This document shows, piece by piece, positions 1-16,375 of a stretch of DNA of 20,000 bases. Every line of letters starts with the position of its first letter. Position 1 is the first letter of the stretch. The notes below the pieces were generated by a model. It did no database searches, had not been told where the DNA came from, and saw only the letters and a list, made by a program, of their open reading frames with translations. Location: sequence record DRR723986_1848. One strand, 5' to 3'. Both the position numbers and the translations under genes were made by a program.

Positions 1-1917
1 AATGATAGTGCTCCCCCATATCTTGGTGAAAAAGGAGTGGGTCGTCTCGCTGTAATGCGACTGGGATGGAAGGTACATATTGAGACTGTAACAAGCAAAG
101 AGAAAGTCACCAACGTTCTAGAAATTGATTGGAAGCGTTTTGAGGAGGCGGATGATGCTGCTGTATCGACAGTAGAGTTAAATCCAGTAGCTGGGAATGA
201 GAAAACAGGTGATGAGTCATTTACTCGAATTACGATCTCAGATCTCAGATCTAGCTGGTCAATATCACGACTTAACCAAATAGCGCGAGAACAAATAGCC
301 CGGATGATGGATCCTTTTTCTTGGGAGGGGAGAAGATTCCAGATTCGTCTAAGTATAAACGGAGTTCCGATTCAACCAGTACGGCAAATTGTTGATGAGC
401 TCTTGCAAAATTCTCATGCCAAGTGTGTCGGTAAGTTTTACTTGAATGGCGGACGACCAGCATTAACCGCTAAAGTTGAGTCCTCGTTGTATCTGGGGGA
501 TACGAAAGAGCTAAATTTTGATTTGGTGGATCTGATGGGTATGGTTGGGCTTAGAGAGTCAGGCTTACCGAGTTCTGTTTTGCGATCCATAGGACCGTTT
601 ACCTTCGAATTGTATTGGTTTAATAGACAAAGACTGCGTGGTATTCCTGATGTGGGCGATCGAAAGGCTGTATCAGATTTGGTGAGAACCTGGGCTGGCG
701 TTTGTTTGTTTCGGGACGGCTTTAGAGTTCTACCATATGGTGACCCAGGCGATGACTGGTTGGGCCTAGATATAACGGCACTGGCGTCAAGTGGTTACAA
801 GCTAAACACTAAACAGATTATTGGCCGAGTAAATATTGGTCGAACGACAAATCCCTGTCTTCTAGATCAAACAAATAGACAAGGTCTACTTGAGACTCCT
901 GAAAAGGAAGTTCTGGTTACTCTGATGCGCAGTCTGGTCTCGAGCTGGTGGCACGACTACCTGAATGAAGCTTCGCAGGCTCAGAAGCGAAAAGAAATTC
1001 GATCTTTCGATCCCACTGTTGAAGGAAATACGGTCGAGGCTTTGGAGTTGCGTGCGACCCAGTCATTGAAAGATATACGTACTCAATATTCGGGCGAAGC
1101 TCAGTTACTTCGAGATGTGAGAGACGCATTTGCAGAGGTAAAGGAAGCTCACCAAAGGGCAGTTCAGCGAATATTAACAATCGAAGAGGAGAAGGAGCGT
1201 TTGACGCAGTTAGCGGGTGTAGGTCTGATGGTCGAAGTTATAGCTCATGAGCTAACTCGAGCTACGGAGCTTACTCAAGCGACGCTCAAAGATATCGGGC
1301 ATCGAAAGATCGATTCCGACGTTGCCTCGGCGTTCCGCACTCTCGGCGAGCAAATTAAGGTAATTCAGAAGAGACTACAAACTCTGGAACCTCTCTCAAT
1401 CACAGCACGTTTTCGACGCTCTAAGATGCGTCTCTTTGACATAGTTAAATATGTGATTGAAGGTCACTCCGCGCAGTTTGCTAGACATGATGTTGATTTT
1501 CGGTGGATGGAGGGATCCGAACATGACGTTGTTGCATTCGTAATCGAAGGGCATATAGTTCAAATACTTGAGAACCTGATTAACAATTCCATATATTGGC
1601 TTGACACAGAAAAAAAAGACTTTCCGTCACTTCATGCACAAATCAATCTAGGAATTTACAGCAACCCACCTCGTATTATCTATTCTGATAACGGACCAGG
1701 AATACCGCCAGGCCGGAACCAATTGGTATTTGAACCATTTTTCTCAACAAAGAGTGGCATGAAGGCAAGACGCCAGGGCCTTGGTCTTTATATAGCTCGG
1801 CAAAATGCGGAAGCTTTAGGTGGCTCAATTGAGCTTGTTCAGCTTGGTAGTGTGCGTGAAAATCGTTACAACACTTTTCAATTAGATTTAAAAGAGGGGC
1901 CTAATGAGTCTGAGTGA
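1..1917 (+). CDS. 5'-partial GHKL (MORC/MutL/HSP90-like) ATPase fused to a C-terminal histidine kinase (HisKA-like + HATPase_c)
   Basis: Frame +1 is open from base 1 (NDSAPPYLGEKGVGRLA, a GHKL glycine-rich motif), so the true start is upstream of the window. An S5-like region follows (LFRDGFRVLPYG, DQTNRQG), then a predicted coiled coil, H-box AHEL (His codon 1246-1248), N-box ENLINNS, G1 DNGPGI, F-box FEPFFSTK and G2 GLGLYIA. No transmembrane segment is apparent. Confidence 0.9.
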   Translation, partial: NDSAPPYLGEKGVGRLAVMRLGWKVHIETVTSKEKVTNVLEIDWKRFEEADDAAVSTVELNPVAGNEKTGDESFTRITISDLRSSWSISRLNQIAREQIARMMDPFSWEGRRFQIRLSINGVPIQPVRQIVDELLQNSHAKCVGKFYLNGGRPALTAKVESSLYLGDTKELNFDLVDLMGMVGLRESGLPSSVLRSIGPFTFELYWFNRQRLRGIPDVGDRKAVSDLVRTWAGVCLFRDGFRVLPYGDPGDDWLGLDITALASSGYKLNTKQIIGRVNIGRTTNPCLLDQTNRQGLLETPEKEVLVTLMRSLVSSWWHDYLNEASQAQKRKEIRSFDPTVEGNTVEALELRATQSLKDIRTQYSGEAQLLRDVRDAFAEVKEAHQRAVQRILTIEEEKERLTQLAGVGLMVEVIAHELTRATELTQATLKDIGHRKIDSDVASAFRTLGEQIKVIQKRLQTLEPLSITARFRRSKMRLFDIVKYVIEGHSAQFARHDVDFRWMEGSEHDVVAFVIEGHIVQILENLINNSIYWLDTEKKDFPSLHAQINLGIYSNPPRIIYSDNGPGIPPGRNQLVFEPFFSTKSGMKARRQGLGLYIARQNAEALGGSIELVQLGSVRENRYNTFQLDLKEGPNESE

Positions 1918-3907
1918 ACTCTTTGTCAAGCGCGGAATCGTCTGTGCGCATATTATTGATGATGCTTTCGATACCCTGCCATCGTACGCTATGGGGCCAG
2001 ACGAAGCTCAAGCTGCGCTGGAAAACTTTGAAGAAGAGGACTTTAACAATATTTGCAAAATTCTCAAGTTGAAGTCTTGTGATGAGGACGGCATACGAAA
2101 GTCCTTACAGGATATCCAAAGTATCCATGAATTATTCAAAAAACGAGCTTCCCTTACAGAAAAAGCCTCGGGAATATTGTTCAATTCATTTGATAAAGAG
2201 ACTGCAGGGAAGGTAGAGCTCGTTCAACCACTTGTGAATTTGTTGAAAGATAACGGTGTTAATTGCCATTGTTTTGGTGTGGATTATTTACCTAAGGGTG
2301 TAGATGCCCCACAACTTTTATTCATTGACTTGAAGTTAAAAGAAGGTGCTAAAAGTGATGTAACACATGTGGATGCAGTTAAGGTATTTAAATCTCTATC
2401 GACTGTGCACAAAGATTGCAAGCCATTTGTTTTTCTGATGTCTTCCCTTAAAACAGTACTCCCCGAGAAACGTGAATTATTCCGGCGCGATGCTGAGTTA
2501 TTTCAGTCTGAATTTGAAGATCTAGACAAGGCAATTTTCACAAATGGAGATGAGCTTTCTCGGGTTTTAGGAAGTTATACTCAGTCATTAGAACTCCTCG
2601 GTGATCTCCGTGACAAGATGAAGGCTTTTCAGGGCGGGATAGAAGGAGCCGCTAAGAAAGTTATGCATCAACTTCGCGCACTTGATTTAGCCGATTATTT
2701 CGTTCTTTATCACAATACGATAGCAGTTGAAAAAATCAAACTTGGCTCTTATGTTGTTGAAATGTTGCTGGAGTTTTTGGCTCACGAAGTTGAAGGACAG
2801 GGTGAAGTTTGGGATTTAGCGAGGTCTCTCGATCAATTAGAGTTGAAGGACTTGCCGCGAGCTCGTTTTGGAGTTACGCATGCAGTATCTCGACTGTATT
2901 CCGCAAATATGATGCATTCGGAAGCGATGCTCCGTTCTGAAGAAGCTGCAAAAGAGGGGCCGGCACAGGGTTACTTTTTTACTGGTGATATTTTCGTTGA
3001 TGCGCAAGCATTTAATTTGTCCATTCCAGACAGAGCTTATGCAATAGTGACGCCAGCATGTGATCTGGTTAGACCTGAAAAATTGAAGGAACGTACATTG
3101 CTAGTTTGCGAGGGAAGTGTTCGGGCAGTTAACCCCGGGTCGTCCACATTGATTGCAAAAGACGGTCTGCCAATTACAGTTATGAATAATTTACGCAATA
3201 CGGATCAGTTTATAGCAATTGAATGGAACAAAAAAAAGCTTCATACCTGGCATGAGGCCGAACAGTTAAAGTTTTCCGATCCTTCACAATGTTCGCTGGT
3301 ACGTGTAGGTCGACTTAGATCTACCTACGCATTGCAATTGCAGCGAGCGATCACATCTGATCTTAGTCGAGTTGGCACACAAAGGCCACCAAGTGCATTA
3401 GTACCTCATCAACTTCGGTGTTTCGTATCAGATAGTATAAAATGGCATGAAGTTTACTTTGATCTGAATACTGACGCAGCTGCGCTCACAGATTCAGAGA
3501 GTAGCGGAAAAAAGCACACATTGTTTGTGTTGACAGATTCGACTATTCACAAGGTTTTTATTAAGATTGATGCATGGATCAAGAATAATCCTAACGTTGT
3601 TAATAAAGTCTCGATTGAAAAAATATTGAAAGACGATGTTAGAAACGCATTACGTGGGTATAAGCAAAAAGTACCTCAGCCTAAGAAACCAGGCGATAAA
3701 GTCGACGTGACAGCCTATCCATTAGAGGTTATTTGGACAGGAGTAGACCAGAAATTAGTCGCTATGACTCGGGCGGGTTCCGGATCGATATACTCACAAA
3801 TCGCAGATGGTCATACTGTAAACGGTACCCAGAATACTTGTGTTGTATTTAAACTGGAAGTGCCTTCGGAACCTACGGAACAAGTCGCTACTCAGAACCC
3901 GGCCTAG
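1904..3907 (+). CDS. Atypical response-regulator receiver-domain protein with an uncharacterised C-terminal region (TPACD motif)
   Basis: 667-aa ORF overlapping the kinase stop by 14 bp, with GAGGGG upstream. Receiver-like motifs: HIIDD (D19/D20), LFIDLKL (D142), FLMSS and LDK. Later motifs TGDIF, IVTPACDLVR and GRLR...LSRVG. Confidence 0.7.
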   Translation: MSLSELFVKRGIVCAHIIDDAFDTLPSYAMGPDEAQAALENFEEEDFNNICKILKLKSCDEDGIRKSLQDIQSIHELFKKRASLTEKASGILFNSFDKETAGKVELVQPLVNLLKDNGVNCHCFGVDYLPKGVDAPQLLFIDLKLKEGAKSDVTHVDAVKVFKSLSTVHKDCKPFVFLMSSLKTVLPEKRELFRRDAELFQSEFEDLDKAIFTNGDELSRVLGSYTQSLELLGDLRDKMKAFQGGIEGAAKKVMHQLRALDLADYFVLYHNTIAVEKIKLGSYVVEMLLEFLAHEVEGQGEVWDLARSLDQLELKDLPRARFGVTHAVSRLYSANMMHSEAMLRSEEAAKEGPAQGYFFTGDIFVDAQAFNLSIPDRAYAIVTPACDLVRPEKLKERTLLVCEGSVRAVNPGSSTLIAKDGLPITVMNNLRNTDQFIAIEWNKKKLHTWHEAEQLKFSDPSQCSLVRVGRLRSTYALQLQRAITSDLSRVGTQRPPSALVPHQLRCFVSDSIKWHEVYFDLNTDAAALTDSESSGKKHTLFVLTDSTIHKVFIKIDAWIKNNPNVVNKVSIEKILKDDVRNALRGYKQKVPQPKKPGDKVDVTAYPLEVIWTGVDQKLVAMTRAGSGSIYSQIADGHTVNGTQNTCVVFKLEVPSEPTEQVATQNPA

Positions 3908-3956
3908 AGAAAAATGCCAGATTGTATTGTTGAAATTTCATGGATTAAGCTTTTGG

Positions 3957-4484
3957 TTACAGATAGACACCATAACGAATGGCGGATAGCAGATTGGATA
4001 TCACCTGCTGGCCCACCACGGTATCAAAGTAATCTGCAGGACGATGGCCACCCAAGGCGTCATTGTGACTAAATGCCCAAGTTCCGAGCCACTCGGCGGC
4101 ATCAAATCCTTCAGGATCGCCACACTCCTCAACAATATTTTTTACTTGTCCTATTAACAAGTGAATTCCAATGATCTGGTTAGACAGACTTTTTTTCTGA
4201 CTGGGTGAGCCTCTAGACTTGATTGAGTAGGCCAAAGAAAGAGAGATGCCGAGACTGTGGGACAAGTTAGCCAAACTGACTCCCATGGCTTGGGCAGTTT
4301 CATAAAAATACCCAGCAGGGATTCCAGCTCTGATCAACCCAACGCGCTCTACTAGAGTGGTTTTGTAGACAGAACTTATGTAGTTGGCAAATTTATCTTT
4401 TTGAGGCGATGAACTCGACAATTTTGACTCCACAAATTTCCTTAGACTTATTGGCCAATGTATCCTAGGCACTTGAAAAAACAC
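3957..4484 (-). CDS. Xre/MbcA/ParS-family antitoxin (HTH + DUF2384-like C-terminal domain)
   Basis: ERVGLIRAGIPA followed by an HTH-like segment, and the C-terminal FDAAEWL...ALGGHRPADYFDTVVGQQVISNLL...GVY typical of this family. The GTG start is uncertain. Confidence 0.8.
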   Translation of the reverse strand: MFFQVPRIHWPISLRKFVESKLSSSSPQKDKFANYISSVYKTTLVERVGLIRAGIPAGYFYETAQAMGVSLANLSHSLGISLSLAYSIKSRGSPSQKKSLSNQIIGIHLLIGQVKNIVEECGDPEGFDAAEWLGTWAFSHNDALGGHRPADYFDTVVGQQVISNLLSAIRYGVYL

Positions 4485-4689
4485 AGCGATCGAGCCGCTA
4501 AGTGGCCGGCACGTAATGTTGTTTTTAGGTGAGTTAGATCGGTTATGACTAAACTGGCTCTCAAACCTTGACGATCCTTATGTGCATAGTGCGGGGCAGA
4601 CAGGGCTACGTCGCTAGCTTAGCGAGTCCTCGTAAGGATTGCTATTGAAGTTTTATGGACGAACTAGGAGTGGCGCTGATTGAAGTTTT

Positions 4690-4799
4690 TCAAGTTTCAA
4701 AAATCCGATCCTAAACTTGAGCGATTTCTCACTGGATTGATTTTTCGAATCAAATGATTTAATGTTCCGATGAATCGGAGCATATATTCCATGAATATA
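4690..4799. promoter_or_regulatory. Cluster of inverted repeats (putative operators) and possible extended -10 upstream of the DUF433 gene
   Basis: TCAAGTTT/AAACTTGA (4690-4697/4713-4720), TTGATT/AATCAA (4737-4753), TGTTCCGAT-GA-ATCGGAGCA (4763-4782, one mismatch) and TATATTC-CAT-GAATATA (4783-4799). TGaTTTAAT at 4755-4763. Confidence 0.45.
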
Positions 4800-5456
4800 A
4801 CTAAATACTTATCGATCGCTGGAGCAGCATTTGTGTCAGGTTTGACAGAACGTGAACTGAACCGAGTAATTGATGAGATGCTTGTACCAGATGAGTTGGT
4901 TGTTCAGAGTAACGGGGGCAGGAGTTTTTCACCGCTGGGCATTGCTTTTGCAAAGTTTTACTTCCGATTGGCTCCAATACTGAGTGCGACGACCAGGAAG
5001 CAGATCATTAATCAAGCATACGAGAATTTCCATGTACAAGGCGAAGGCTTCAATTTCTTGGGTGAGGTTGTGGTGGGAGCCAAAAGTTGGGAGATTTCGG
5101 TTGATATAGTTAGAGTTGATATTGCCCCTTTTGTGCGTGAGGTTTGGTCGAATTTACGCTTGGTGGATGCAGCTGAAAGTTCGATTACACAGGACGATTC
5201 GGTGATGTCTGGGCGTCCCGTATTCAAGGGAACAAGGCTTCCAGTCGACTTGGTTGTCGGTGTCAAGGAACAGTCAATAAGTATTCAAGAAGCTCAAGAG
5301 GCCTACCCATTCTTAACCAAAGAGCAAATTGAGGCGGCGGAAGTCTACCTCAAGCTCCACCCTCCCCGTGGGCGCCCTAGACGCCTGACAGAAGTGAACC
5401 CAAAGCTCAAGGTATTAAGGCCGAGAGCCAAAAGCGAAAGAAATTTTGACGATTAA
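4770..5456 (+). CDS. HTH + DUF433 domain protein (antitoxin-type)
   Basis: N-terminal HTH-like segment (AAFVSGLTERELNRVID) and C-terminal DUF433 signature ITQDDSVMSGRPVFKGTRLPV...EAYPFLTKEQIEAA. The likely start is ATG 4791, with GGAG at 4777-4780. Confidence 0.85.
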   Translation: MNRSIYSMNITKYLSIAGAAFVSGLTERELNRVIDEMLVPDELVVQSNGGRSFSPLGIAFAKFYFRLAPILSATTRKQIINQAYENFHVQGEGFNFLGEVVVGAKSWEISVDIVRVDIAPFVREVWSNLRLVDAAESSITQDDSVMSGRPVFKGTRLPVDLVVGVKEQSISIQEAQEAYPFLTKEQIEAAEVYLKLHPPRGRPRRLTEVNPKLKVLRPRAKSERNFDD

Positions 5457-5511
5457 CATCGAATAGCTTCGGAATGTAGCGCTGAGCAGAACTCAGGCGG
5501 AATGATTGTTG

Positions 5512-5556
5512 GTCGCGTATTTACGTGTGTAGTCGCATATTTAAACGGAAATAACA
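5512..5556 (-). repeat. Transposon end: terminal TGT plus two 12-bp direct repeats (putative TnsB/TniA binding sites)
   Basis: Minus strand reads TGTTATTTCCGTT-TAAATATGCGAC-TACACACG-TAAATACGCGAC. The repeats are 11/12 identical with a 20-bp period. Confidence 0.7.
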
Positions 5557-6423
5557 TCCGCCGCCGATCAATGCAGCCATGGTGCTGCTAGGGTGTGGGT
5601 TTCTAAAAGGGCGCTGCGGGCTCAGCATGTCGCTTTCGCCTTTCAGGCTTCGAATGGCCGAGATCTCCAGCGAGTCTTCAAAAGGCAAAGGTGGCATCAG
5701 GCTGCCTACGCGCTGCGCCAGCATCGACTTTCCACTGCCCGGTGGGCCCACCAGGCGAATGTGGTGTTGACCCGCCGTGGCGGTCAGTAAGGCATGTTTG
5801 GCGGTTTGGTGACCAATCACTTCGGCCATGTCCAGTGGGTTGGTCGTGCTCGAATGGTTTGATGCCAGGTGTGATTGTTGTTCCAGTGGCTGGCCATGCC
5901 CCACCAGATGCGCAGCCGCTTCAAACAAATTGCCGGCGCCGAATACTGCAAGGTCGGGCACAGTGGCTGCAAGCCTGGCTGGCGCTTTGGGCATCATCAG
6001 CTTGATCGTGCGCTGGCGTATGCAGGCCTCCTTTCGAGCAGCAACTGCCAGGGCAAAAGGACTGCGTACGCCAGTCAGTGCACCTGACAATGACAGTTCT
6101 CCAGCGAACAACCAGTCAGAGAGATCGGCTTTGGCCAATTGGCCCGAAGCACTGGCGATGCCCAATGCGACTGCAAGATCAAATGCCGCACTGCCCTTGG
6201 GAAGGTCAGCCGGCGCGAGGTTGACTGTAATTCGCTGAGAGGGAAACTCGAATCCGCTGTTGAGCAAGGCCGATCGTACTCGTTCTTTGGATTCACGGAT
6301 TTCGGTATCGGGCAGACCGACCAGCGCGAAGGAAGGCAAGCCGGCTGACAAATGAACCTCAATTTGAACCGCGACAGGGCGAACGCCCACAAAGGTAAGA
6401 CTGTGAAGGGTGGCTAGAGGCAT
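5557..6423 (-). pseudogene. comM: 5' fragment of comM/yifB (Mg-chelatase-like AAA+ ATPase) interrupted by the insertion; reads through 11 codons to TAA at 5521-5523
   Basis: From ATG 6423: GLPSFALVGLPD, ESKERVRSA, ITVNLAPADLPK, GELSLSG, Walker A GPPGSGKSMLA and RPFRNPH...ALIGGG. The conserved continuation (PGEISLAH, Walker B FLDE) is absent. Confidence 0.92.
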
Positions 6424-6531
6424 GGTGCGGACAACAGTCAAACCCCGAGGATTATCCCCACGCCGCTTCTTTTTGCAAATGAGTGCTTCGGTTGGCGTCA
6501 CCCGGTGGACGACGCCTGACAGAGGGCTCGA

Positions 6532-6762
6532 TCAGGTTCGTTTCTCGAGCTCAGCCACGCGCAATTCGAGTGCATGCACCTTTTCGCGCAGCCGGTTAAG
6601 CACTTCCTTTTGGATTTCAAAATCTTCAAGGCTCACAAACTCCATGTCTTGCAAACCTTGCCGAATCAGCTGTGTGACTGGATTCTCCATGTTTTGAAGG
6701 CCTTTTGCGTTGAGCAATTCGCCTACTTTGGCCGTGATGGCATCGAAAGGATTGTTCGCCAA
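6532..6762 (-). CDS. ubiK: UbiK/YqiC (BMFP) family accessory factor
   Basis: 76 aa with FVSLEDFEIQKEVLNRLREKVHALELRVAELE. It sits in the usual position upstream of comM, divergent from glnK-amtB. TTG start. Confidence 0.85.
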   Translation of the reverse strand: MANNPFDAITAKVGELLNAKGLQNMENPVTQLIRQGLQDMEFVSLEDFEIQKEVLNRLREKVHALELRVAELEKRT

Positions 6763-6790
6763 TGTTTACCCCGAAAGAGTTTTATCGCGT

Positions 6791-6820
6791 CGCACCAAAA
6801 CAGTGCACCAAATTGGTGCT
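6791..6820. promoter_or_regulatory. Two overlapping NtrC-type binding sites
   Basis: CGCACCAAAACAGTGCA (6791-6807) and TGCACCAAATTGGTGCT (6804-6820) match TGCACCA-N3-TGGTGCA and lie upstream of a sigma54 promoter and glnK-amtB. Confidence 0.85.
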
Positions 6821-6902
6821 GCGGCGAAAAATTCAAAAAATTGAATCCCTATTGTGCCCGAAAAAGGGGGATTTATCGTGAAATTACCGACGAGTTCATG
6901 GT

Positions 6903-6918
6903 TGGCACACTTCTCGCT
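6903..6918 (+). promoter_or_regulatory. Sigma54 (-24/-12) promoter
   Basis: TGGCAC-ACTTC-TCGCT, with GG (6904-6905)-N10-GC (6916-6917). Confidence 0.8.
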
Positions 6919-6973
6919 AATAGACCCTTGCCAAAAAAACTTTACGGCATTCATCTATTTTTAGGAGAGTGAG

Positions 6974-7747
6974 ATGAAAAAATTAGTACTGGTCGCTGCA
7001 ATCGCCGCAACTACTTTCGGGGCTGTTTCAACTGCACAAGCTGTTGAAGTGACTACCACTGCAAACGCCAACCTCACCACCGACTATAAGTTCCGTGGTA
7101 TTTCCCAAACCAATGCAGGCCCAGCTTTCCAGGGTGGTTTTGACGCCGCTTTCAGCAACGGTTTCTACATCGGTAACTGGAACTCCAACGTTTCTTTCAC
7201 TGGCGCTACTGGTGCCGGTCTGGAAATGGACTTCTACGGTGGCTACGCTGGCTCTTTCGCCAACGGTATTGGATATGACGTGGGTGCTTTGTATTACTTC
7301 TACGAAGGCGCAGCTATTACCCCAGGTTTGCCCGAACTCAATACATTGGAAGTCTACGGTAAGTTGACTTACGGTGGTGCATACGCCAAGTTGTCAGTCG
7401 CTGCTTCCGAAGACTACTTCGGCTTCCAGGGCGTCAATAGCCAAAATGATCAGAGCGGATCAACATACCTCGACTTGGGTTACACATTCCCATTGTCCGA
7501 TGCTTTGTCTTTGACCGCTCACTACGGTTTGACATCGTTCGACAAGGACATGGCCGACCTGCGTCCAGGTGCTACCGGCACAATCGACTCCTATGCTGAC
7601 TACAGCATCGGCGCTACATATGCCATTAGCCCAAAGTACTCAATCACCGCAGCCTACATCGAAACTGATGACGATGCGCAAGCACTGATCAACAACGATG
7701 ACTTGACCGACGGTTCTTTGGTAGTGACTTTCAGCGCCAAGTTCTAA
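6974..7747 (+). CDS. TorF-family putative outer-membrane porin
   Basis: Signal peptide, TDYKFRGISQT, PAFQGGFD, EMDFYGGY and C-terminal Phe. RBS AGGAG. Typical location upstream of glnK. Confidence 0.88.
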   Translation: MKKLVLVAAIAATTFGAVSTAQAVEVTTTANANLTTDYKFRGISQTNAGPAFQGGFDAAFSNGFYIGNWNSNVSFTGATGAGLEMDFYGGYAGSFANGIGYDVGALYYFYEGAAITPGLPELNTLEVYGKLTYGGAYAKLSVAASEDYFGFQGVNSQNDQSGSTYLDLGYTFPLSDALSLTAHYGLTSFDKDMADLRPGATGTIDSYADYSIGATYAISPKYSITAAYIETDDDAQALINNDDLTDGSLVVTFSAKF

Positions 7748-7758
7748 ATTGAATCCAG

Positions 7759-8157
<399 letters not shown>

Positions 8158-8178
8158 CCAGAGAGAAGTGAGGAAATC

Positions 8179-9633
8179 ATGAGAAAACTTCTGACTGTCT
8201 GGCTTGCGGCCGCAGCACTGGGTTTCAGTGTTGCCAGTCCCGGTGTATTTGCTCAGGAAACCCCTGTAGCGCCTGCCACCGAAGCCACCGAAACAATGGC
8301 TGCTCCCGTCGAGGCAGCTCCTGCCGAAGCGCCTGCCGCTGAAGCTCCCATGGCCGCAGAAGCTGCTCCCGCAGAAGAAGCTGCCCCAGCTGTTGAACAA
8401 ACAGTGAACAAAGGCGATATCACCTGGATGATGGTCGCGACTATTTTGGTTATCTTCATGACCATTCCTGGCTTGGCATTGTTCTACGGCGGCTTGGTCC
8501 GCGCAAAGAACATGTTGTCTGTGCTGATGCAGGTAATGTCCGTGTTCTGTCTGATCGTGGTGTTGTGGGCTGTATACGGCTACAGCTTGACTTTCGGCGG
8601 TGGTGACAATCCGTTCGTGGGCAACTTCAGCAAACTGTTCTTGAGCGGCGTGACACCTGACTCCCTGTCAGCCACGTTCACTGAAGGCGTGATGATCCCT
8701 GAATTCATTTTCATCGCATTCCAGTCCACATTCGCGGCCATTACCTGTGCCCTGATCGTGGGTGCATTCGCCGAGCGCATCAAGTTTTCTGCAGTGTTGC
8801 TGTTCTGTGCAATCTGGTTCACTTTCAGCTACGTGCCAATCGCTCACATGGTGTGGGACGCTGCTGGTTTCATCTTCGCAGATGGCGCAATCGACTTCGC
8901 TGGCGGTACAGTGGTTCACATCAACGCTGCAGTTGCAGGTTTGGTGGGTGCTTACATGATCGGCAAGCGTGTTGGTTACGGCAAGGAAGCCATGACTCCA
9001 CACAGCCTGACATTGACCATGGTTGGTGCATCCATGCTGTGGGTGGGTTGGTTCGGTTTCAACGCTGGTTCCAACCTGGAAGCCAACGGTGGTGCAACAT
9101 TGGCCTTCATCAACACATTGTTGGCAACTGCTGCCGCAACACTGAGCTGGGCCGCTGCTGAAGCACTGCTGAAAGGCAAGGCGTCCATGCTGGGTGCCGC
9201 TTCCGGTGCAGTGGGTGGTCTGGTTGCGATCACACCAGCCTGCGGCACAATCGGCCCAATGGGAGCTCTGATCCTTGGCTTGATGGCTGGCCCAATCTGT
9301 CTGTGGGGCGTGACTGGTCTTAAGAAGATGTTGGGTGCAGACGATGCACTGGACGTGTTCGGTGTACACGGCGTAGGCGGTATCTTGGGCGCCTTGATGG
9401 TAGGTGTGTTGTCTGCACCTAGCCTGGGCGGCACCATGGGTGACGACTTCGTAATCGCTTCCCAGTTGGCAGTGCAGGCCAAGGGCGTGGTGATCACTAT
9501 CGTTTGGTCTGGTATCGTGGCTGCAATCTCCTTCAAGCTGGTAGACCTCATCGTTGGCCTGCGTGTGTCTGAAGATGCAGAGCGCGAAGGTCTGGACATC
9601 ACCTCTCACGGTGAAACAGCCTACAGCAAGTAA
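8179..9633 (+). CDS. amtB: Ammonium transporter AmtB
   Basis: PGLALFYGG, DFAGGTVVH, WFGFNAGS, DDALDVFGVHG and EREGLD..HGE. Signal peptide present. Confidence 0.97.
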   Translation: MRKLLTVWLAAAALGFSVASPGVFAQETPVAPATEATETMAAPVEAAPAEAPAAEAPMAAEAAPAEEAAPAVEQTVNKGDITWMMVATILVIFMTIPGLALFYGGLVRAKNMLSVLMQVMSVFCLIVVLWAVYGYSLTFGGGDNPFVGNFSKLFLSGVTPDSLSATFTEGVMIPEFIFIAFQSTFAAITCALIVGAFAERIKFSAVLLFCAIWFTFSYVPIAHMVWDAAGFIFADGAIDFAGGTVVHINAAVAGLVGAYMIGKRVGYGKEAMTPHSLTLTMVGASMLWVGWFGFNAGSNLEANGGATLAFINTLLATAAATLSWAAAEALLKGKASMLGAASGAVGGLVAITPACGTIGPMGALILGLMAGPICLWGVTGLKKMLGADDALDVFGVHGVGGILGALMVGVLSAPSLGGTMGDDFVIASQLAVQAKGVVITIVWSGIVAAISFKLVDLIVGLRVSEDAEREGLDITSHGETAYSK

Positions 9634-9685
9634 ATACACTCTCCACTTAGGTGGAATCCTTCAGCCCGGGGTAAAGGGCTGATTC

Positions 9686-9710
9686 AAAGGCACCTTCGGG
9701 TGCCTTTTTT
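9686..9710 (+). terminator. Rho-independent terminator after amtB
   Basis: AAAGGCACC-TTCG-GGTGCCTTT followed by further Ts. Confidence 0.9.
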
Positions 9711-9796
9711 GCTTCACCCCCCGATTTTCCCTCCTCAATGTGGCGGTGCAGCGTTTTGGATTACACTTGGCGAAGTGTCTTACCCAGAGAATGTTG

Positions 9797-11086
9797 ATGG
9801 TTCCACATCTTGTAACTGCTTTAACCGGTCCACTGTTGGATCTTGAAAAACGAATGCTCGACAAGACCACTGAAATTGAGCGGTGGTTTCGCATGGCCTG
9901 GAATGAGAACACGCCGCCTTTTTACAGTTCAGTGGATGTGCGCAATGCAGGTTTCAAGCTTGCGCCTGTTGACACCAACCTGTTTCCTGGCGGTTTCAAC
10001 AATCTCGCCCCCGACATGATGCCGCTGGCCATTCAGGCCGCCGTGAGTGCCATTGACAAAATTTGTCCGGAAGCGCGCAGCATGGTGCTGGTACCGGAGA
10101 ACCACACCCGCAACACCTTTTACCTCACCAATGTGGCCCGCTTGGCTGCCATTTTGAAGCAAACCGGTCTGGATATTCGTCTGGGTTCCGTGTCGCCCGA
10201 CATCACCGAACCGACCCGTTTTGATTTGCCGGATGGTCAGCACATTGTGCTGGAACCGCTCAAGCGCTACGGTAGCCGGGTTGGTGTTGATGGGTTGGAG
10301 CCATGTGCGGTGTTGTTGAACAACGATCTTTCCGCAGGTGTTCCTCCAATTCTGCAAGGCATTAAAGACCAAATCCTGTTGCCCCCTTTGCATGCTGGTT
10401 GGGCCACCCGCCGCAAGAGTACGCACTTCAAAGCCTATGATTCAGTCGTTGAGGCTTTTTCTGAAATGCTGGAAATTGATCCCTGGTTGATCAACCCGTA
10501 TTTCACGCACCGCAATCAGTTGAATTTTCAGGAGCGCGTGGGTGAAGAGGCCCTGGCGCAGGCTGTCGATGAGGTGCTTGCCAAAACACGCATCAAATAC
10601 GCTGAATACGGCATAGACGAGCAGCCTTATGTGGTGGTCAAGGCTGATGCAGGCACCTACGGCATGGGCATCATGACTGTAAAGGACGCCTCGGAAGTGG
10701 TTGGCCTGAATCGCAAGCAGCGCAACAAAATGTCGGTGATCAAAGAGGGCCTGCAGGTGTCCGACGTGATTATTCAAGAAGGTGTGCACACCTTCGAGAG
10801 CATTGAAGACGCCGTGGCCGAGCCTGTGGTTTACATGATCGACCGCTATGTGGTGGGCGGTTTTTACCGAGTGCACACTGGCCGTGGCCGCGATGAAAAC
10901 CTGAATGCACCTGGCATGCACTTTGTGCCTTTGGCATTTGAAACGCCATGTAACACACCCGACTGCAGTGATCGCCCCGACGCCGCGATGAACCGTTTCT
11001 ATGCTTATGGCGTAATCGGCCGTCTGGCCGCGTTGGCTGCTTCGCAAGAGCTGGAGGCTACAGCAGGTATGGAGTTGGCCGCATGA
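9797..11086 (+). CDS. gshA: Glutamate--cysteine ligase (Betaproteobacteria-type GshA)
   Basis: MVPHL start (9797; alternative ATG 9791), PFYSSVDVRNAGFKLAPVDTNLFPGGFNNL and KADAGTYGMG. Overlaps gshB. Confidence 0.93.
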   Translation: MVPHLVTALTGPLLDLEKRMLDKTTEIERWFRMAWNENTPPFYSSVDVRNAGFKLAPVDTNLFPGGFNNLAPDMMPLAIQAAVSAIDKICPEARSMVLVPENHTRNTFYLTNVARLAAILKQTGLDIRLGSVSPDITEPTRFDLPDGQHIVLEPLKRYGSRVGVDGLEPCAVLLNNDLSAGVPPILQGIKDQILLPPLHAGWATRRKSTHFKAYDSVVEAFSEMLEIDPWLINPYFTHRNQLNFQERVGEEALAQAVDEVLAKTRIKYAEYGIDEQPYVVVKADAGTYGMGIMTVKDASEVVGLNRKQRNKMSVIKEGLQVSDVIIQEGVHTFESIEDAVAEPVVYMIDRYVVGGFYRVHTGRGRDENLNAPGMHFVPLAFETPCNTPDCSDRPDAAMNRFYAYGVIGRLAALAASQELEATAGMELAA

Positions 11087-12045
11087 GCAGTCGGAGTTTT
11101 GTGTGCGTCATTGATCCGCTCACCAGCCTGAATCCGAAAAAAGATTCCTCCATCGCCATGATGGAATCGGCGCAATCGCGTGGCTGGAAAGTGGGCGTGA
11201 TCGAGGATGGAGGCATGCATTGGGCGACTGGTGTTGGTGTTCGCGCCCAGGTGGTGTGGATTGCAATTGACCGGGCCAGCAAGCCTTGGTATTCCGAGGT
11301 GGGTCGTGAAGAGGTTGCATTGAAAGACCTTGATGCCATCATCATGCGCAAAGACCCACCGTTCGATGCCGAGTTTGTGACCGCTACCTGGCTTCTTGAA
11401 CAGGGCGAGCGTGAGGGTGCGCGAGTGTTCAATAGTCCGCGGGCCATTCGTGATCACAACGAAAAATTCACCATTGCCCAGTTTGAACAATTTGTAGTGC
11501 CTACCCTGGTTTCGCGCAACGCCGCCCAGCTTCGCGGTTTTCTGGAACAACATCCTGATGCCATTGCCAAACCTCTGGATGGCATGGGCGGCACGTCAAT
11601 TTTTCGCATGAAGAAAGGCGATCAAAACGTGGGCGTAATACTGGAAACCCTGACCGACTATGGCCGCAAAACCGCCATGATTCAGCGCTATATTCCCGAC
11701 ATTGTGGACGGCGACAAACGTGTGTTACTCATCAATGGCGAGCCGGTACCTTATTGTCTGGCACGATTACCCAAAGAGGGTGAGCACCGAGGTAACCTGG
11801 CTGCGGGGGGCACAGGCAGGGCACAGCCCTTGAGTGAAAGCGACTGGCACATTGCCCGCACATTGGCACCCGAATTGAAAAAGCGAGGGCTATTGCTGGT
11901 GGGACTGGACATCATCGGGCAGAACCTCACCGAGGTGAATGTCACAAGCCCCACCTGCTTTCGCGAGATCATGGATCAAACCGGATTTCCCGTGGCAGAC
12001 ACTTTCGTGCAAGCCGTTGAAACAGCCTTGCAGGAGAAGCACTGA
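11083..12045 (+). CDS. gshB: Glutathione synthetase
   Basis: KKDSS, MRKDPPFD, KPLDGMGG, RGNLAAGG and EVNVTSPT. Confidence 0.96.
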   Translation: MSSRSFVCVIDPLTSLNPKKDSSIAMMESAQSRGWKVGVIEDGGMHWATGVGVRAQVVWIAIDRASKPWYSEVGREEVALKDLDAIIMRKDPPFDAEFVTATWLLEQGEREGARVFNSPRAIRDHNEKFTIAQFEQFVVPTLVSRNAAQLRGFLEQHPDAIAKPLDGMGGTSIFRMKKGDQNVGVILETLTDYGRKTAMIQRYIPDIVDGDKRVLLINGEPVPYCLARLPKEGEHRGNLAAGGTGRAQPLSESDWHIARTLAPELKKRGLLLVGLDIIGQNLTEVNVTSPTCFREIMDQTGFPVADTFVQAVETALQEKH

Positions 12046-12509
12046 TGTTGGGCTTGGTGCTGGTGACTCATGCGCCTTTGGGTGACGCCATTGCCCAATG
12101 CGTGAAACACGTGATGGGTTCTTTGCCTGATGGACTGGCTGTGGTGGATGTGCCTGCGGATGAAGACATTGAACAGTCTGTGCAGCGCATTCAAGCCGCT
12201 GCGCGGCAGGTTCATGCGGGTGAAGGTGTGGTGTTTTTGACTGACCTGTTTGGTGCAACTCCTTCCAATGCCGCGGTGCGTGCTGGCGTGGAATCGTTGA
12301 ATTTGCCGACTGTGCTGGTCTCGGGCTGCAATCTACCCATGGTGCTGCGTGCACTTGGGTTTCGGGATTTGCCCATCAATGACGTGGCCGAACGTTTGGT
12401 CATGGGCGGCCGAAACGGTATCGTAAGCACTGGTGCAACAGCGCCACAACGTCAAACCTTTAACCCGGCGAAGAACGATGATTCAGCAAGAAATCACCAT
12501 CAGCAATAA
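12045..12509 (+). CDS. PTS EIIA component (mannose/fructose-type)
   Basis: LVLVTH, LTDLFGATPSN and GCNLPMVL. Confidence 0.9.
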   Translation: MLGLVLVTHAPLGDAIAQCVKHVMGSLPDGLAVVDVPADEDIEQSVQRIQAAARQVHAGEGVVFLTDLFGATPSNAAVRAGVESLNLPTVLVSGCNLPMVLRALGFRDLPINDVAERLVMGGRNGIVSTGATAPQRQTFNPAKNDDSARNHHQQ

Positions 12510-12747
12510 ACTGGGCCTGCATGCGCGGGCTTCGGTCAAACTGACACAGACGGCCAGCCGTTTTCAGTCCGAAGTGTGGATTGGCAAGGCAGGCCGGCGC
12601 GTGAATGCAAAAAGTATCATGGGTGTCATGATGTTGGCCGCAGGGAAAGGACACAATGTGCTTCTTGAAGCGGAGGGCAGTGACGAGGCTGAAGCCATCG
12701 CCGCACTGGTGGCCTTGATTGATGACAAATTTGGCGAAGGCGAGTAA
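12478..12747 (+). CDS. ptsH: Phosphocarrier protein HPr/NPr
   Basis: NKLGLHARAS and NAKSIMGVMMLAA. The start is placed at ATG 12478 rather than the ORF-track start at 12433. Confidence 0.94.
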   Translation: MIQQEITISNKLGLHARASVKLTQTASRFQSEVWIGKAGRRVNAKSIMGVMMLAAGKGHNVLLEAEGSDEAEAIAALVALIDDKFGEGE

Positions 12748-12750
12748 ACC

Positions 12751-14502
12751 ATGACCCTGGCCTTGCATGGCATTGCAGTATCAAGAGGCATTGCAGTCAG
12801 CCGAGCCCTGGTTTGGGACACGGCGATGCGGGACATTCCCCGCAATCGCATTGAAAAAAAATCCGTTCGTTTCGAGAAAAAGAGATTCGACAACGCGGTC
12901 AAACGCGTCGCTGATGAGTTGGTTGAAATTCGCAGTCAAATTGCAGCTGACTCCCCTGCAGAGTTCGATGCGTTCCTGAACTTGCACAGCCTGATTCTGG
13001 CCGACCCGATTCTGTCCGAAGAGCCCAAAAACCTGATTCAAAGCAAGTTGATCAATGCCGAGTGGGCGCTGATCGAGCAAATGGAAGTGCTCTTGGAGCA
13101 GTTTTCCGCCATTGAGGATGATTACTTCCGCGAGCGCAACAGCGATGTGCGTCAAGTGGTTGAGCGCATTCTGAAATCACTGCGAGGTCATGCCACAGCT
13201 CTGCCCTTGCCTCCCGAGGGTGAGAATGAAGACCCCTGGCTGATTGTTGCGCACGATATTTCGCCAGCCGATATGGTGCAACTCAAAGGCCGCCGCGTGG
13301 GCGCTTTCGTGACCGAGATGGGTGGTGCAACCTCTCACACCGCGATTGTGGCGCGCAGCCTTGGCATACCTGCGGTCGTGGGTGTGCCGCGCGCGCTCGA
13401 GTATGTGCACAACGGCGATTTGGTGGTGGTCGACGGCAAGGTAGGTGCCGTGTTTCTGGACCCCGCTGCGATGGTGGTGGACGAGTACCAGCGCAAACAG
13501 GCCATTTTGGCTTTGTCGCGCCAGCGCCTGAAGCGGCTGATTACCACCGAAGCGCGAACCCAATGCGGCCGTCGAATTGAGTTGCTGGCCAACATTGAAT
13601 TGCCCGAGGACGTGAAAGGCGTGGTGGATGCGGGGGCCGATGGTGTAGGCCTGTTCCGGTCCGAATTCCTGTTCATGAACCGCAAGGAATGGCCTTCTGA
13701 GGATGAGCAGTATGAGGCGTACCGAAAGGTAATCAAGGCCATGAAAGGCAAGCCGGTCACAGTTCGGACACTGGATTTGGGCGCTGACAAAACCCTGCAG
13801 TTTGATGGGGCCAACAGCAGTGCGCCACCCGTGTCCAGCACTTCAGCGCTGGGGTTGCGTTCCATTCGCTTCAGTTTGGCTGAGCCCGCCATATTTCTCA
13901 CCCAAATTCGCGCCTTGTTGCGGGCTGCCAAGCATGGTCCAGTCAAAATCCTTTTGCCGATGCTCACCAACATTCGGGAAACCAAACAAGCTTTGGCCTA
14001 CATTGATATGGCGCGTGAACAATTGCTCGAGCGCCGTTTTCAGGCCAATCAGGCCGTGCCAATCGGCGGCATGATCGAAGTGCCCGCGGCTGCGCTCAGC
14101 CTGCCGCATTTCTTGAATTATCTGGATTACGTGTCGATCGGCACCAACGATTTGATTCAATACACGCTGGCAGTTGACCGGGTCGATCACCAGGTGGCGC
14201 ACTTGTACGACCCCCTCCACCCCGCGGTGTTAAGGCTTGTCTTTGAGGTCATCTCCAGCGCTGAAAAAGCGGGCGTGCCTGTGAGCGTATGTGGTGAAAT
14301 GGCGGGCGATATTCGCCTGACCCGCTTGTTGCTGGGCATGGGCCTTACCCAGTATTCCATGCACCCGTCGCAGTTGTTGGATGTGAAAGAGTTGCTGCTG
14401 AAAACCGATTTTGAGGCCACGCAAAAATTGGTCAAAAAAGTGACTCGGTCATTTGACATCGATAAAATTGATGCCCTGATGCATCAATTGCACGAAGACT
14501 GA
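12751..14502 (+). CDS. ptsI: PEP-protein phosphotransferase (Enzyme I)
   Basis: GGATSHTAIVAR, GVGLFRSEFL, SIGTNDLIQY and VCGEMAG. No N-terminal GAF domain. Confidence 0.95.
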   Translation: MTLALHGIAVSRGIAVSRALVWDTAMRDIPRNRIEKKSVRFEKKRFDNAVKRVADELVEIRSQIAADSPAEFDAFLNLHSLILADPILSEEPKNLIQSKLINAEWALIEQMEVLLEQFSAIEDDYFRERNSDVRQVVERILKSLRGHATALPLPPEGENEDPWLIVAHDISPADMVQLKGRRVGAFVTEMGGATSHTAIVARSLGIPAVVGVPRALEYVHNGDLVVVDGKVGAVFLDPAAMVVDEYQRKQAILALSRQRLKRLITTEARTQCGRRIELLANIELPEDVKGVVDAGADGVGLFRSEFLFMNRKEWPSEDEQYEAYRKVIKAMKGKPVTVRTLDLGADKTLQFDGANSSAPPVSSTSALGLRSIRFSLAEPAIFLTQIRALLRAAKHGPVKILLPMLTNIRETKQALAYIDMAREQLLERRFQANQAVPIGGMIEVPAAALSLPHFLNYLDYVSIGTNDLIQYTLAVDRVDHQVAHLYDPLHPAVLRLVFEVISSAEKAGVPVSVCGEMAGDIRLTRLLLGMGLTQYSMHPSQLLDVKELLLKTDFEATQKLVKKVTRSFDIDKIDALMHQLHED

Positions 14503-14591
14503 TCCAGCAACCGGCCCGCCCTTAAAGCCCGTTTGCGATTTATACTCAAGGGCTTGCGAAAACCAACCACCAACCAAAGAAACGCCGTATT

Positions 14592-15728
14592 GTGTCTGCC
14601 AACCAGTCCGTGGGCTTCGTAAAGCCCGAGCTTATTGAATTTACTGCACCGCTGTTGCTGGAGTGCGGAAAATCCCTGCCCAGTTATTCGCTGATGGTTG
14701 AAACGTATGGCACACTCAATGCCGAGAAAAGCAATGCTGTGCTGGTGTGCCACGCATTGAATGCCTCTCACCATGTGGCAGGTCTGTACGAAGGGCAAGA
14801 CAAGAGTGAGGGCTGGTGGGACAACATGGTGGGCCCGGGAAAGCCGCTGGATACCAACCGGTTCTTCGTGATTGGCGTGAACAACCTGGGTTCATGCTTT
14901 GGTTCTACCGGCCCCAGCAGCATCAACCCGGAAACCGGTAAACCCTATGGCGCCGACTTTCCGTTTGTCACTGTTCAAGACTGGGTGAATGCGCAGGTGC
15001 GGCTGGCAGATTACTTTGGCATCGAAAAGTTTGCTGCAGTCATGGGGGGCAGCCTGGGCGGCATGCAGGCCCTGCAATGGAGCCTCAGCTACCCCGACCG
15101 CGTGGGTCACTGCATGGTGATTGCCTCAACTCCAAAGCTGAGCGCACAGAACATTGCCTTTAACGAAGTGGCGCGCCAGGCCATCGTGACCGATCCCGAT
15201 TTTCATGGCGGCAATTATTATGAGCACGGCGTGGTACCCAAGCGCGGTTTGCGACTGGCTCGAATGATCGGCCACATCACCTACTTGAGCGGCGACGACA
15301 TGGCCGAAAAGTTTGGCCGCACCCTGCGCAACGGTGATTACAATTACGGGCTGGAGGTGGACTTCCAGGTGGAAAGCTACCTGCGCTACCAAGGCGACAA
15401 GTTTGCAGATTACTTTGATGCCAACACCTACTTGCTGATTACCAAAGCGCTCGATTATTTTGACCCCGCGCGCCACACGGGTGGCGACTTGGCCAAAGCG
15501 CTTGAAGCGGCCAAAGCCAAATTTTTACTGGTCAGCTTTACCACCGACTGGCGTTTTGCCCCCGAGCGAACCCGCGAAATCGTGGAGGCCCTCATGGCCA
15601 ACCAGCGCGATGTCACTTACGCGGAAATTGACGCCCCACACGGTCACGATGCATTCTTGTTGACTGACGAGCGCTACCACAATGTGGTGCGTGGCTACTT
15701 TGAGCGCATTGCCAAGGAGCTTGCATGA
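14592..15728 (+). CDS. metX: Homoserine O-acyltransferase MetX
   Basis: [22 protein letters not shown] and HGHDAFL. GTG start. Overlaps metW. Confidence 0.95.
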
Positions 15729-16366: not shown

Positions 16367-16375
16367 GCCAACTTC

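Follow-up and report, generated by a model that had tools for sequence, protein, structure and literature searches.

The locus studied here raises the question of what a histidine kinase with two ATP-binding folds and a receiver-type partner without a familiar output domain do together at the end of a transposon. The pair lies at positions 1-3907 of a 20,000-nt stretch of sequence record DRR723986_1848 (hereafter the window), on the plus strand, and consists of open reading frame 1 (ORF1; 1..1917), a soluble paraMORC-type GHKL-histidine kinase of which the C-terminal 638 amino acids (aa) of about 790 are present, and ORF2 (1904..3907), a receiver-effector protein of 667 aa. A preliminary description, made from the letters of the window, had read the two genes as a phosphorelay-controlled defence module carried as transposon cargo; the observation itself is confirmed by the present analysis, and the interpretation is partly supported. 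In its relatives the pair is almost always situated inside bacterial loci for Ssp DNA phosphorothioation, an anti-phage defence encoded by SspABCD and in some cases also by SspFGH, and this near-constant association indicates that it is probably a signalling arm of that defence. The reading favoured here, to which we assign a probability of about one half, is that the pair forms a kinase-gated, toxin-fold restriction or abortive-infection arm of SspABCD. The new elements are the Ssp linkage of this kinase clade and the MazF/CcdB fold modelled for the output domain, the kinase-receiver architecture having already been described computationally.

The reading frame of ORF1 is open at the 5' edge of the window, with no stop before base 1. 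Its homologues number 799 at E<=0.001, and almost all of the 120 listed are 787-815 aa long with PF13589 and PF02518; given this relative length of about 790 aa, approximately 155 N-terminal residues of ORF1 must lie outside the window. The 14-bp overlap between the ORF1 stop and the ORF2 start, noted in the preliminary description, is borne out by the coordinates of the two frames, and the sequence AGAGGGG precedes the ORF2 ATG; the two genes are translationally coupled. ORF1 matches the in-house histidine kinase (HK) profile with E 1.6e-248. In Pfam, its catalytic HATPase_c domain (PF02518) covers residues 518-631 (1552..1893, plus strand; E 2.2e-13) and contains, by motif search, the N box NLINNS (1573-1590), the G1 box DNGPGI (1687-1704), the F box FEPFF (1729-1743), and the G2 box GLGLYI (1777-1794), all on the plus strand. 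Upstream, residues 407-469 (1219..1407, plus strand) correspond to HEF_HK-like dimerisation and histidine phosphotransfer (DHp) helices, which supply dimerisation and the phospho-acceptor; they match HEF_HK (PF19191) at 20.9 bits, under its gathering cut-off of 24.1, and some ORF1 homologues have a precomputed PF19191 match. The predicted phospho-acceptor of the H box is His416 (codon CAT, 1246-1248, plus strand). Across 36 sequences, H416 and E417 are invariant, as are the kinase-core residues N525, N529, D563, G565, G567, F577, F580, G593, and G595.

A second GHKL ATP-binding fold lies at the N-terminus, where the G2-type glycine motif GEKGVGRLA occupies 25..51 (plus strand) and G9, E10, K11, G12, G14, and R15 are invariant across the same 36 sequences. 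Pfam detects here the tail of HATPase_c_3 (residues 8-64), a weak match owing to the truncation of this domain at the start of the window. Full-length relatives have invariant residues in all three motifs of this fold (E27, N31, D34; D124, G126, G128; and G165-G170), of which only motif III falls inside the window. The nearest solved-structure sequences to the N-terminal module are Hsp90/GRP94 (E 2e-7); the match of the N-terminal profile to solved structures is confined to the GHKL part, and no Pfam model matches residues ~65-400, the middle part that would include the putative S5-like region of the preliminary description. Neither ORF1 nor ORF2 shows a transmembrane segment, their highest 19-residue Kyte-Doolittle means being 1.36 and 0.98, respectively. 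By its sequence, ORF1 is thus a soluble protein in which an Hsp90/paraMORC-type GHKL module precedes a complete histidine-kinase core in the same chain. The earlier claim of two GHKL folds and a complete kinase core in one soluble protein holds on the grounds of Pfam matches, located boxes, and hydropathy, and each motif that it had named in ORF1, together with D142 of ORF2, was found in the translations where it had been placed.

ORF2 is far less transparent. It has no match in Pfam even at E<=10, nor in NCBIfam, PADLOC, or PHROGs; the receiver models PF00072 and PF19192 match 0/45 members of its family at E<=1, and profiles of the family return only a chance COX7a match among solved-structure sequences. 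A search of PADLOC-DB v2.0.0 leaves both ORF1 and ORF2 without a match, and the pair is thus not in that database. Structures were approached through AlphaFold2 models built on family alignments (103 ORF2 homologues were found) and compared by VIA-align and Foldseek. The full-length model is confident (predicted local distance difference test score, pLDDT, 86.9; predicted template modelling score 0.79), and a separate model of residues 325-667 reaches pLDDT 89.4. Residues ~11-230 (1934..2593, plus strand) are modelled as a receiver (REC) domain: its comparison with solved receivers gives VIA-align Z 11.9-10.8 with root-mean-square deviations (rmsd) of 2.6-3.1 Å over 109-152 aligned residues, almost all of the best 50 VIA-align matches are receiver domains, and Foldseek returns many response regulators with weak E-values. 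The five strands end at the classical positions in the model, and D19, D20, D142, S180, and K209 are invariant in 33/33 relatives from many phyla, with D142 (2327-2329, plus strand) at the motif position of the predicted phospho-acceptor. The features of a two-component system are hence present in both proteins, namely the kinase core boxes and a receiver fold with an acidic pair, a phospho-accepting aspartate, a serine, and a lysine. Sequence models miss this domain because of a helical insert modelled at residues 32-116. It is joined to the output region by a predicted helical bundle (residues ~231-349; 2594..2950, plus strand), assigned from the secondary structure of the model, in which D264 is invariant.

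Residues ~350-492 (2951..3379, plus strand) of the C-terminal model are matched in VIA-align by MazF, Kid, or CcdB at all of ranks 1-11 (Z 7.9-5.7, rmsd 2.8-3.6 Å), with 90-103 residues aligned on toxin chains of 94-118; rank 12 is CptN, a type III toxin, and chains without relation to these toxins are confined to Z values under 4.4. Foldseek agrees, since almost all of its matches are MazF-family proteins (best E 0.017, probability up to 0.98). Ten residues of this domain (G361, D362, C386, D387, G404, W441, R470, Q480, R489, and G491) are invariant in 33/33 relatives that span at least nine phyla, judged by record titles. As modelled, residues ~350-492 have a MazF/CcdB fold; because the Z values are middling, it is the fold and not homology that is claimed. 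Other assignments of the invariant GD...CD motif, as a PD-(D/E)xK nuclease or as a caspase-, sortase-, or phosphatase-like site, were rejected because the neighbouring residues that they need are not conserved, and they are further displaced by the modelled toxin-like fold. The remaining C-terminal domain (residues ~494-655; 3383..3868, plus strand) is beta-rich by its modelled strands, with high pLDDT, mixed VIA-align matches (Z<=3.6), and low sequence conservation among relatives.

Among 1.84 billion proteins, 969 representative clusters (50% identity) are matched by a profile of the output region; each of the best 150 shows the ORF2 architecture, whole or in fragmentary form, and an Atlas search with the C-terminal part of ORF2 returns only the family's own clusters. 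No longer fused forms of ORF2 were found, which is weak evidence by the search tool's own caution, and a scan of viral contigs yielded no relative. Comparison of the output domain by hhalign with in-house profiles of SspA, B, C, D, F, G, H, HNH, and HK gave probabilities of at most 0.4% throughout.

These domain assignments bear on another explanation, in which the pair would be a transcriptional two-component system that controls ssp expression. Such a role has been suggested for kinases beside ssp: Sun et al. 2020 (PMC7464106) found histidine kinase genes adjoining ssp in 211 strains of Acinetobacter and see them as candidate regulators of SspE. A two-component system near a nuclease-less Ssp system is also described in PMC12421847. 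However, no helix-turn-helix or other DNA-binding family is found in ORF2 by Pfam at E<=10, in keeping with the earlier view of ORF2 as a receiver-like protein with no recognisable helix-turn-helix domain; its output is modelled as a toxin-type beta barrel plus a beta domain; and the sensor of the kinase is an ATPase clamp rather than a ligand-binding domain. Moreover, no Acinetobacter protein occurs among the 103 ORF2 hits or the 120 listed ORF1 hits, the family membership of the Acinetobacter kinases being unconfirmed. Transcriptional control is therefore considered highly improbable.

The genomic context of relatives provides the principal evidence for a link to DNA phosphorothioation, the modification underlying the Ssp defence system that was reportedly described by Xiong et al. 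in 2020. In a genome sample, a pattern scan with one genome per species gave 28 loci with ORF2 relatives, in which Ssp genes were called within 10-kb flanks using profiles built from genes of the type seen in locus L006 of Pseudomonas orientalis (DSM 17489, contig NZ_JYLM01000012.1). There, the three genes upstream of the pair are identified by PADLOC as SspB (512 bits), SspC (1996 bits), and SspD (398 bits). SspF, SspG, and SspH are likewise assigned by PADLOC at other loci of the pair, and Pfam agrees with this naming through DUF4007, PAPS_reduct, FtsK_SpoIIIE, and Aminotran_5. A kinase ORF of ~790 aa directly precedes the ORF2 relative in all 28 loci, and at least one Ssp gene is present in 27 of them (SspB, SspC, or SspD in 22). 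The single locus without an Ssp gene is a 7.6-kb contig, and its kinase is identical to that of an Ssp-linked twin. The pair is frequently lodged within the ssp genes themselves: the order sspC, pair, sspD occurs in seven loci (L013, L020, L022, L024, L025, L028, and L029) and in Bacteroidota, Chloroflexota, Planctomycetota, and Armatimonadota.

Another sample, drawn independently from metagenomes by using the kinase as the seed, comprises 13 close loci (31-71% identity) and about 55 distant ones (22-29%). Ssp genes accompany the pair in 9/13 close loci, and the remaining four contigs are 5.4 kb or shorter. Plasmid pAtK224b (NZ_CP115927.1) carries the order HK, REC, SspF, SspG, SspH, and then SspD and SspC, its pair being labelled 'sensor histidine kinase' and 'hypothetical protein' in RefSeq. 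Pairwise distances are also correlated between the kinase and its partner (HK-REC r=0.70) and between each of them and SspC (HK-SspC r=0.58, REC-SspC r=0.61), with 0/2000 shuffles as high, in a test that is inflated by relatedness. The defence context proposed for the pair is thus borne out in the genome loci, the metagenome loci, and one plasmid. PADLOC searches and a survey of homologue neighbourhoods had been proposed along with it; the pair itself is unmatched and the neighbours of its relatives are Ssp defence genes.

Further genes of possible relevance to Ssp systems were noticed as well. Two SspBCD loci from unrelated genomes (L108 and L111) share the same unlabelled three-gene set after sspD (~557, 589, and 307 aa in one; 556, 633, and 304 aa in the other), which is unmatched by the in-house SspF, SspG, and SspH profiles and may represent another Ssp partner module. 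An HNH_4-type nuclease gene of 369-393 aa flanks L016, L025, L027, and L028 (Bacteroidota and one Verrucomicrobia metagenome-assembled genome, MAG), and is a possible additional nuclease partner of Ssp plus kinase-receiver loci. In addition, L013 and L014 are near-identical and their kinases are the same letter for letter, yet they are filed as 'uncultured actinobacterium' and as a 'Planctomycetales' MAG, respectively, a binning or labelling conflict in the public records.

The distant metagenome loci have a different character, with the kinase followed by a gene of ~360 aa and then one of ~250 aa. Among those scanned with Pfam, Eco57I-type N6 methylases occur in L064, L079, and L090, and a C5 methylase with HerA in L046 and L057; their partners yielded one weak Response_reg match and one weak Response_reg_2 match. 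These methylase-linked loci are of the published HEF_HK/Response_reg_2 type, for which the accessible part of a purely computational study (Bellieny-Rabelo et al. 2021, PMC8011034) describes two-component-like elements tied to methylases (C5 methyltransferases and type I/II restriction-modification systems). It might accordingly be supposed that the window's pair is an ordinary member of that type, which stands near Ssp genes only because defence genes cluster in islands. The kinase architecture (HATPase_c_3, DHp, and HATPase_c) is the same, and a sister element of the window's transposon in another genome, described below, carries a methylase-linked version.

The kinase tree speaks against this supposition. 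Among its 77 rows (33 Ssp-labelled, two from uninformative contigs, the window's kinase, and 41 others), the Ssp-linked kinases are grouped in a single clade (support 100, branch length 1.35); the window's kinase is deep inside this clade, and all 41 methylase-linked or other kinases are outside. Every row of the clade with informative flanks is Ssp-linked (33/33), and the Ssp label requires three changes on the tree, compared with a shuffled mean of 24.7 and 0/500 shuffles as low. Furthermore, the pair often lies inside the ssp operon, between sspC and sspD, no methylase is adjacent to it in the Ssp-linked loci, and PF19192 matches none of the 45 partners. Membership in the ordinary methylase-linked type is hence improbable, and for this clade the preliminary link to methylase restriction-modification is not sustained, since the neighbours are Ssp phosphorothioation genes instead. 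The links between the two groups of partners are indirect: hhalign of the ORF2 family against the methylase-linked partners gives a probability of 70% (E 3.9e-5), and PF19192 has a share of 15% in related Atlas clusters. A GD...CD or GD...CH motif is common to ORF2 and 3/38 methylase-linked receiver partners (L046, L050, and L048), all three of which belong to the group that is sister to the Ssp clade; L046 and L050 have one and the same sequence, from a locus with a C5 methylase and HerA, and an HNH_2 gene comes next.

Taken together, these observations are consistent with a model in which positions 1-3907 would be the last two genes of an Ssp-type phosphorothioate (PT) defence island carried by a Tn7-like transposon in comM. 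The ATPase module of ORF1 would read a DNA or infection state tied to PT marking, candidate signals being incoming DNA that lacks the modification or an SspBCD complex that has stalled while scanning, and the signal would drive autophosphorylation of His416. The phosphoryl group would then pass to Asp142 of ORF2, and phosphorylated ORF2 would free its toxin-fold output domain, leading to growth stop or attack on nucleic acid. The proposals of the preliminary description, that the ATPase clamp would sense a ligand and that the partner would be switched by His-to-Asp transfer, are consistent with the invariant histidine, aspartate, serine, and lysine. The pair may thereby provide SspABCD with a restriction or abortive-infection arm that acts alongside SspE or SspFGH or in their place. 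This reading is favoured by the finding that, in 13 loci with SspABCD and the pair and no SspFGH, 0/42 flanking ORFs match the PADLOC PT-restriction models, a result limited by the unconfirmed presence of SspE models in PADLOC-DB. The more specific proposal that it constitutes a third kind of Ssp restriction arm after SspE and SspFGH, whose paraMORC-type clamp reads phosphorothioate status and, by a His-to-Asp step, fires a phospho-gated MazF/CcdB-fold toxin within the response regulator, is put forward tentatively, as possible but doubtful.

A number of observations weigh against the restriction or abortive-infection reading. With regard to the output domain, the fold match is middling (Z<8), and such Z values can reflect a common arrangement; PemK/MazF in Pfam does not match ORF2 even at E<=10; and R376, mapped by eye to the catalytic-loop arginine of MazF, varies across the family, which makes a canonical MazF RNase mechanism doubtful. 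With regard to context, no Ssp gene or remnant was found within the window by profile search, the Ssp genes expected upstream would fall beyond its edge, and the Ssp link rests on relatives. The pair also co-occurs with SspFGH (L019, L025, L028, L029, L040, and L117) and is therefore not simply a substitute restriction module. Finally, it is present in 0/12 SspB loci met in 401 genomes of the phylum, indicating that Ssp systems work without the pair and that the dependence is one-way. RNA-level data were looked for among sequencing runs, and none were found.

Some of these points would suit a different role, in which the pair would regulate the Ssp machinery after translation or serve it as an adaptor: once phosphorylated, ORF2 would bind SspB/SspC or SspFGH so that modification or restriction is licensed or restrained, and the MazF/CcdB-fold domain would be a binding module only. 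Such restraint would correspond to the role of DndB in Dnd systems. The position of the pair between sspC and sspD in several phyla, its co-occurrence with complete SspFGH modules, the variable position of the canonical catalytic arginine, and the covariation of HK and REC distances with those of SspC all fit such an adaptor. Conversely, the ten invariant polar or glycine residues of the output domain, including D362, C386-D387, R470, Q480, and R489, are kept across distant phyla and suggest an active site rather than a surface for docking, no further candidate gene for restriction was found in the vicinity at 12 loci or more, and the lack of the pair at most Ssp loci (0/12) argues against a core regulator. 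A regulatory or adaptor role is on balance unlikely; transcriptional control and chance neighbourhood are much less likely than either the effector or the regulator reading.

The position of the pair in the window connects it with a mobile element. GC content is 41-46% up to ~5000 and 52-57% beyond, and the left end of a Tn7-like transposon is located at 5512..5556, where two GTCGCRTATTTA repeats (at 5512 and 5532) are followed by the terminal ...AATAACA. The adjoining TCCGC (5557-5561) is a 5-bp target-site duplication and leads into the interrupted 5' part of comM/yifB, a Mg-chelatase-like AAA ATPase gene on the minus strand (5557..6501; gene from 5521), which retains ChlI plus the first 95 positions of Mg_chelatase. 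The nearest genome (G001) shares 5511-6600 at 99% and an Xre-like gene at 95%, while positions 1-3950 are not shared. At the same comM junction it contains the 3' half of comM, which lies beyond the other element end, together with tnsA, tnsB, tniB, tniQ, cargo, and the same end sequence; the right end of its element, adjacent to these tns and tni genes, repeats window 5512-5556 in inverted form, and a copy of TCCGC borders the element on either side. From this inverted end and the duplication on both sides it follows that the window holds a Tn7-like left end, the window and G001 together presenting TGT...ACA inverted ends, repeated transposase-binding sites, and a 5-bp target duplication. The earlier description of the pair as transposon cargo is thus supported by the Tn7-type end in the window and by the tns/tni genes of the sister element.

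The contents of the two elements differ in an informative manner. Similarity to G001 begins at 3953, just ahead of an Xre/ParS-type antitoxin-like gene (3957..4484, minus strand; library matches) that has no RES toxin partner beside it, and this position is probably a recombination boundary between conserved transposon backbone and variable cargo. In place of the window's pair, the G001 element carries a complete methylase-linked module (L032, G001:C33:8000-27400, ~11161-17177, minus strand) with an Eco57I-type N6 methylase of 590 aa, a paraMORC-kinase of 785 aa, a receiver-like frame (11893-13074; E 1.7e-41 against the in-house class-B profile), and a 243-aa gene. The methylase-linked version in G001 and the Ssp-clade version in the window, at the same comM site, indicate that sister elements swap such modules as cassettes. 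No DUF4007 gene was found in G001. A patatin-like gene is also located in L032. Between the Xre/ParS-type gene and the left end, window 4501-5510 comprises ~1 kb with a DUF433-containing ORF of 228 aa (4770..5456, plus strand; Pfam) that is absent from the G001 element, which has only ~50 bp there. A contig from a second study matches 4521-5574 near-perfectly and continues into comM-like sequence with 52 differences in 231 bases (window 4521-6369), which hints at the same element end in a different comM allele or host, with the reservation that metagenome joints can mislead. A promoter scan of 3700-5600 gave 0 sites, and Rfam and tRNA scans of the window were empty.

Beyond comM, window 6574-19967 is ordinary chromosome, encoding a Gcw_chp outer-membrane protein, glnK-amtB, gshA, gshB, phosphotransferase-system (PTS) EIIA and enzyme I, metX-metW, DUF4212, and a fused IcmF-type mutase. 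It could be imagined that the pair, with its generic kinase and receiver motifs, is a two-component system with housekeeping duties and no connection to defence or to mobile DNA. Nevertheless, it resides in a low-GC island where a Tn7-like element ends, few of the host's relatives possess it (1/201 genomes of the family, and then as a distant match), and it lacks the usual sensor and DNA-binding domains, so that a housekeeping role has a negligible probability.

If the proposal of a third restriction arm is correct, the pair would represent an abortive-infection switch of the two-component kind that responds to an epigenetic mark on the DNA backbone and is conserved in at least nine phyla. PT systems without a known nuclease are common, an example being the dominant Acinetobacter baumannii clone of PMC12421847, and if the pair supplies the effector or switch that they lack, their means of discrimination and killing would be accounted for. 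It would also link GHKL/MORC-type DNA clamps in immunity, His-to-Asp phosphorelay triggers such as that of Detocs, and toxin folds as built-in effectors, subjects that have so far been studied separately. Irrespective of mechanism, the ORF2 family (969 clusters) is unseen by Pfam, NCBIfam, and PADLOC, and genome annotations and defence censuses consequently miss it. No experimental study of the kinase-receiver pair was found in the literature searched, which covers few subscription journals, in agreement with the preliminary description, which knew of none.

Among known systems, the closest in architecture is the HEF_HK/Response_reg_2 type, which in the accessible part of its description likewise combines a soluble kinase of N-terminal HATPase_c_3 (paraMORC-like), HisKA-like DHp, and C-terminal HATPase_c with an adjacent divergent receiver-like partner beside DNA-modification genes. 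The same accessible part makes no mention of DUF4007, PAPS reductase, Dnd, or phosphorothioation. The window's pair differs in belonging to a separate, Ssp-linked kinase clade, with methylases flanking only kinases outside it, and in a partner unmatched by PF19192 (0/45). Its partner is a ~650-aa fusion that contains the predicted MazF/CcdB-fold domain, whereas in most methylase-linked loci a partner of ~360 aa is followed by a separate ~250-aa gene (HNH_2 in L046). The relatives of the pair resemble Ssp systems in their position within or beside sspB, sspC, and sspD, often beside sspF, sspG, and sspH, but SspABCD-SspE and SspABCD-SspFGH as published have no kinase or receiver; the words kinase, ATPase, and two-component are absent from the accessible text of the SspFGH paper (Wang et al. 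2021, PMC8092258). A reappraisal of Dnd systems (Rakesh et al. 2024, PMC10853773) makes no mention of a histidine kinase, receiver, MORC, or GHKL protein. MADS (10.1101/2023.03.30.534895) was considered and rejected, as it is, in its accessible description, an eight-gene methylation system with a differently annotated kinase, and ORF1 and ORF2 match no mad model. As for MazF, Kid, and CcdB, the fold predicted for ORF2 residues ~350-492 can be aligned with the toxin chains over almost their full length; unlike these toxins, ORF2 has no sequence-level match to them and no separate antitoxin gene, its domain is fused behind a receiver, and, in contrast to MazF, the family has its own invariants (the C-D pair, R470, Q480, and R489).

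Two defence systems offer functional analogies, each for a part of the proposed pathway. In Detocs (DtcABC; 10.1101/2023.01.24.525353), according to the accessible part of the report, a kinase phosphorylates a receiver fused to a cell-killing effector, and mutants of the histidine and the aspartate lose defence. The present pair, as known from genes and models, would similarly have a receiver fused to an effector in place of a DNA-binding domain. Detocs differs, on the same account, in its tetratricopeptide-repeat (TPR) sensor, its third, buffer receiver (DtcB), its mostly PNP ATP-nucleosidase effectors, and its lack of a tie to DNA modification; in the search for its three-gene set, no third receiver gene was present here, and ORF1 and ORF2 have no PADLOC match (the presence of Detocs models in v2.0.0 being unconfirmed). 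The other analogy is VcSduA (PMC12137116), in which, as far as its accessible text goes, a paraMORC3-like GHKL module is joined to a DUF4263 Shedu nuclease and the ATPase is proposed to control the killing domain; the defence roles of paraMORC proteins are still termed 'proposed' in a 2026 preprint. Both VcSduA and the window's pair have an N-terminal Hsp90/MORC-like GHKL ATPase upstream of a putative killing domain, with the ATPase fused directly to the nuclease in the former and a kinase core with a putative His-to-Asp step in between in the latter. Each half of the proposed mechanism thus has a functional precedent in Detocs or in VcSduA.

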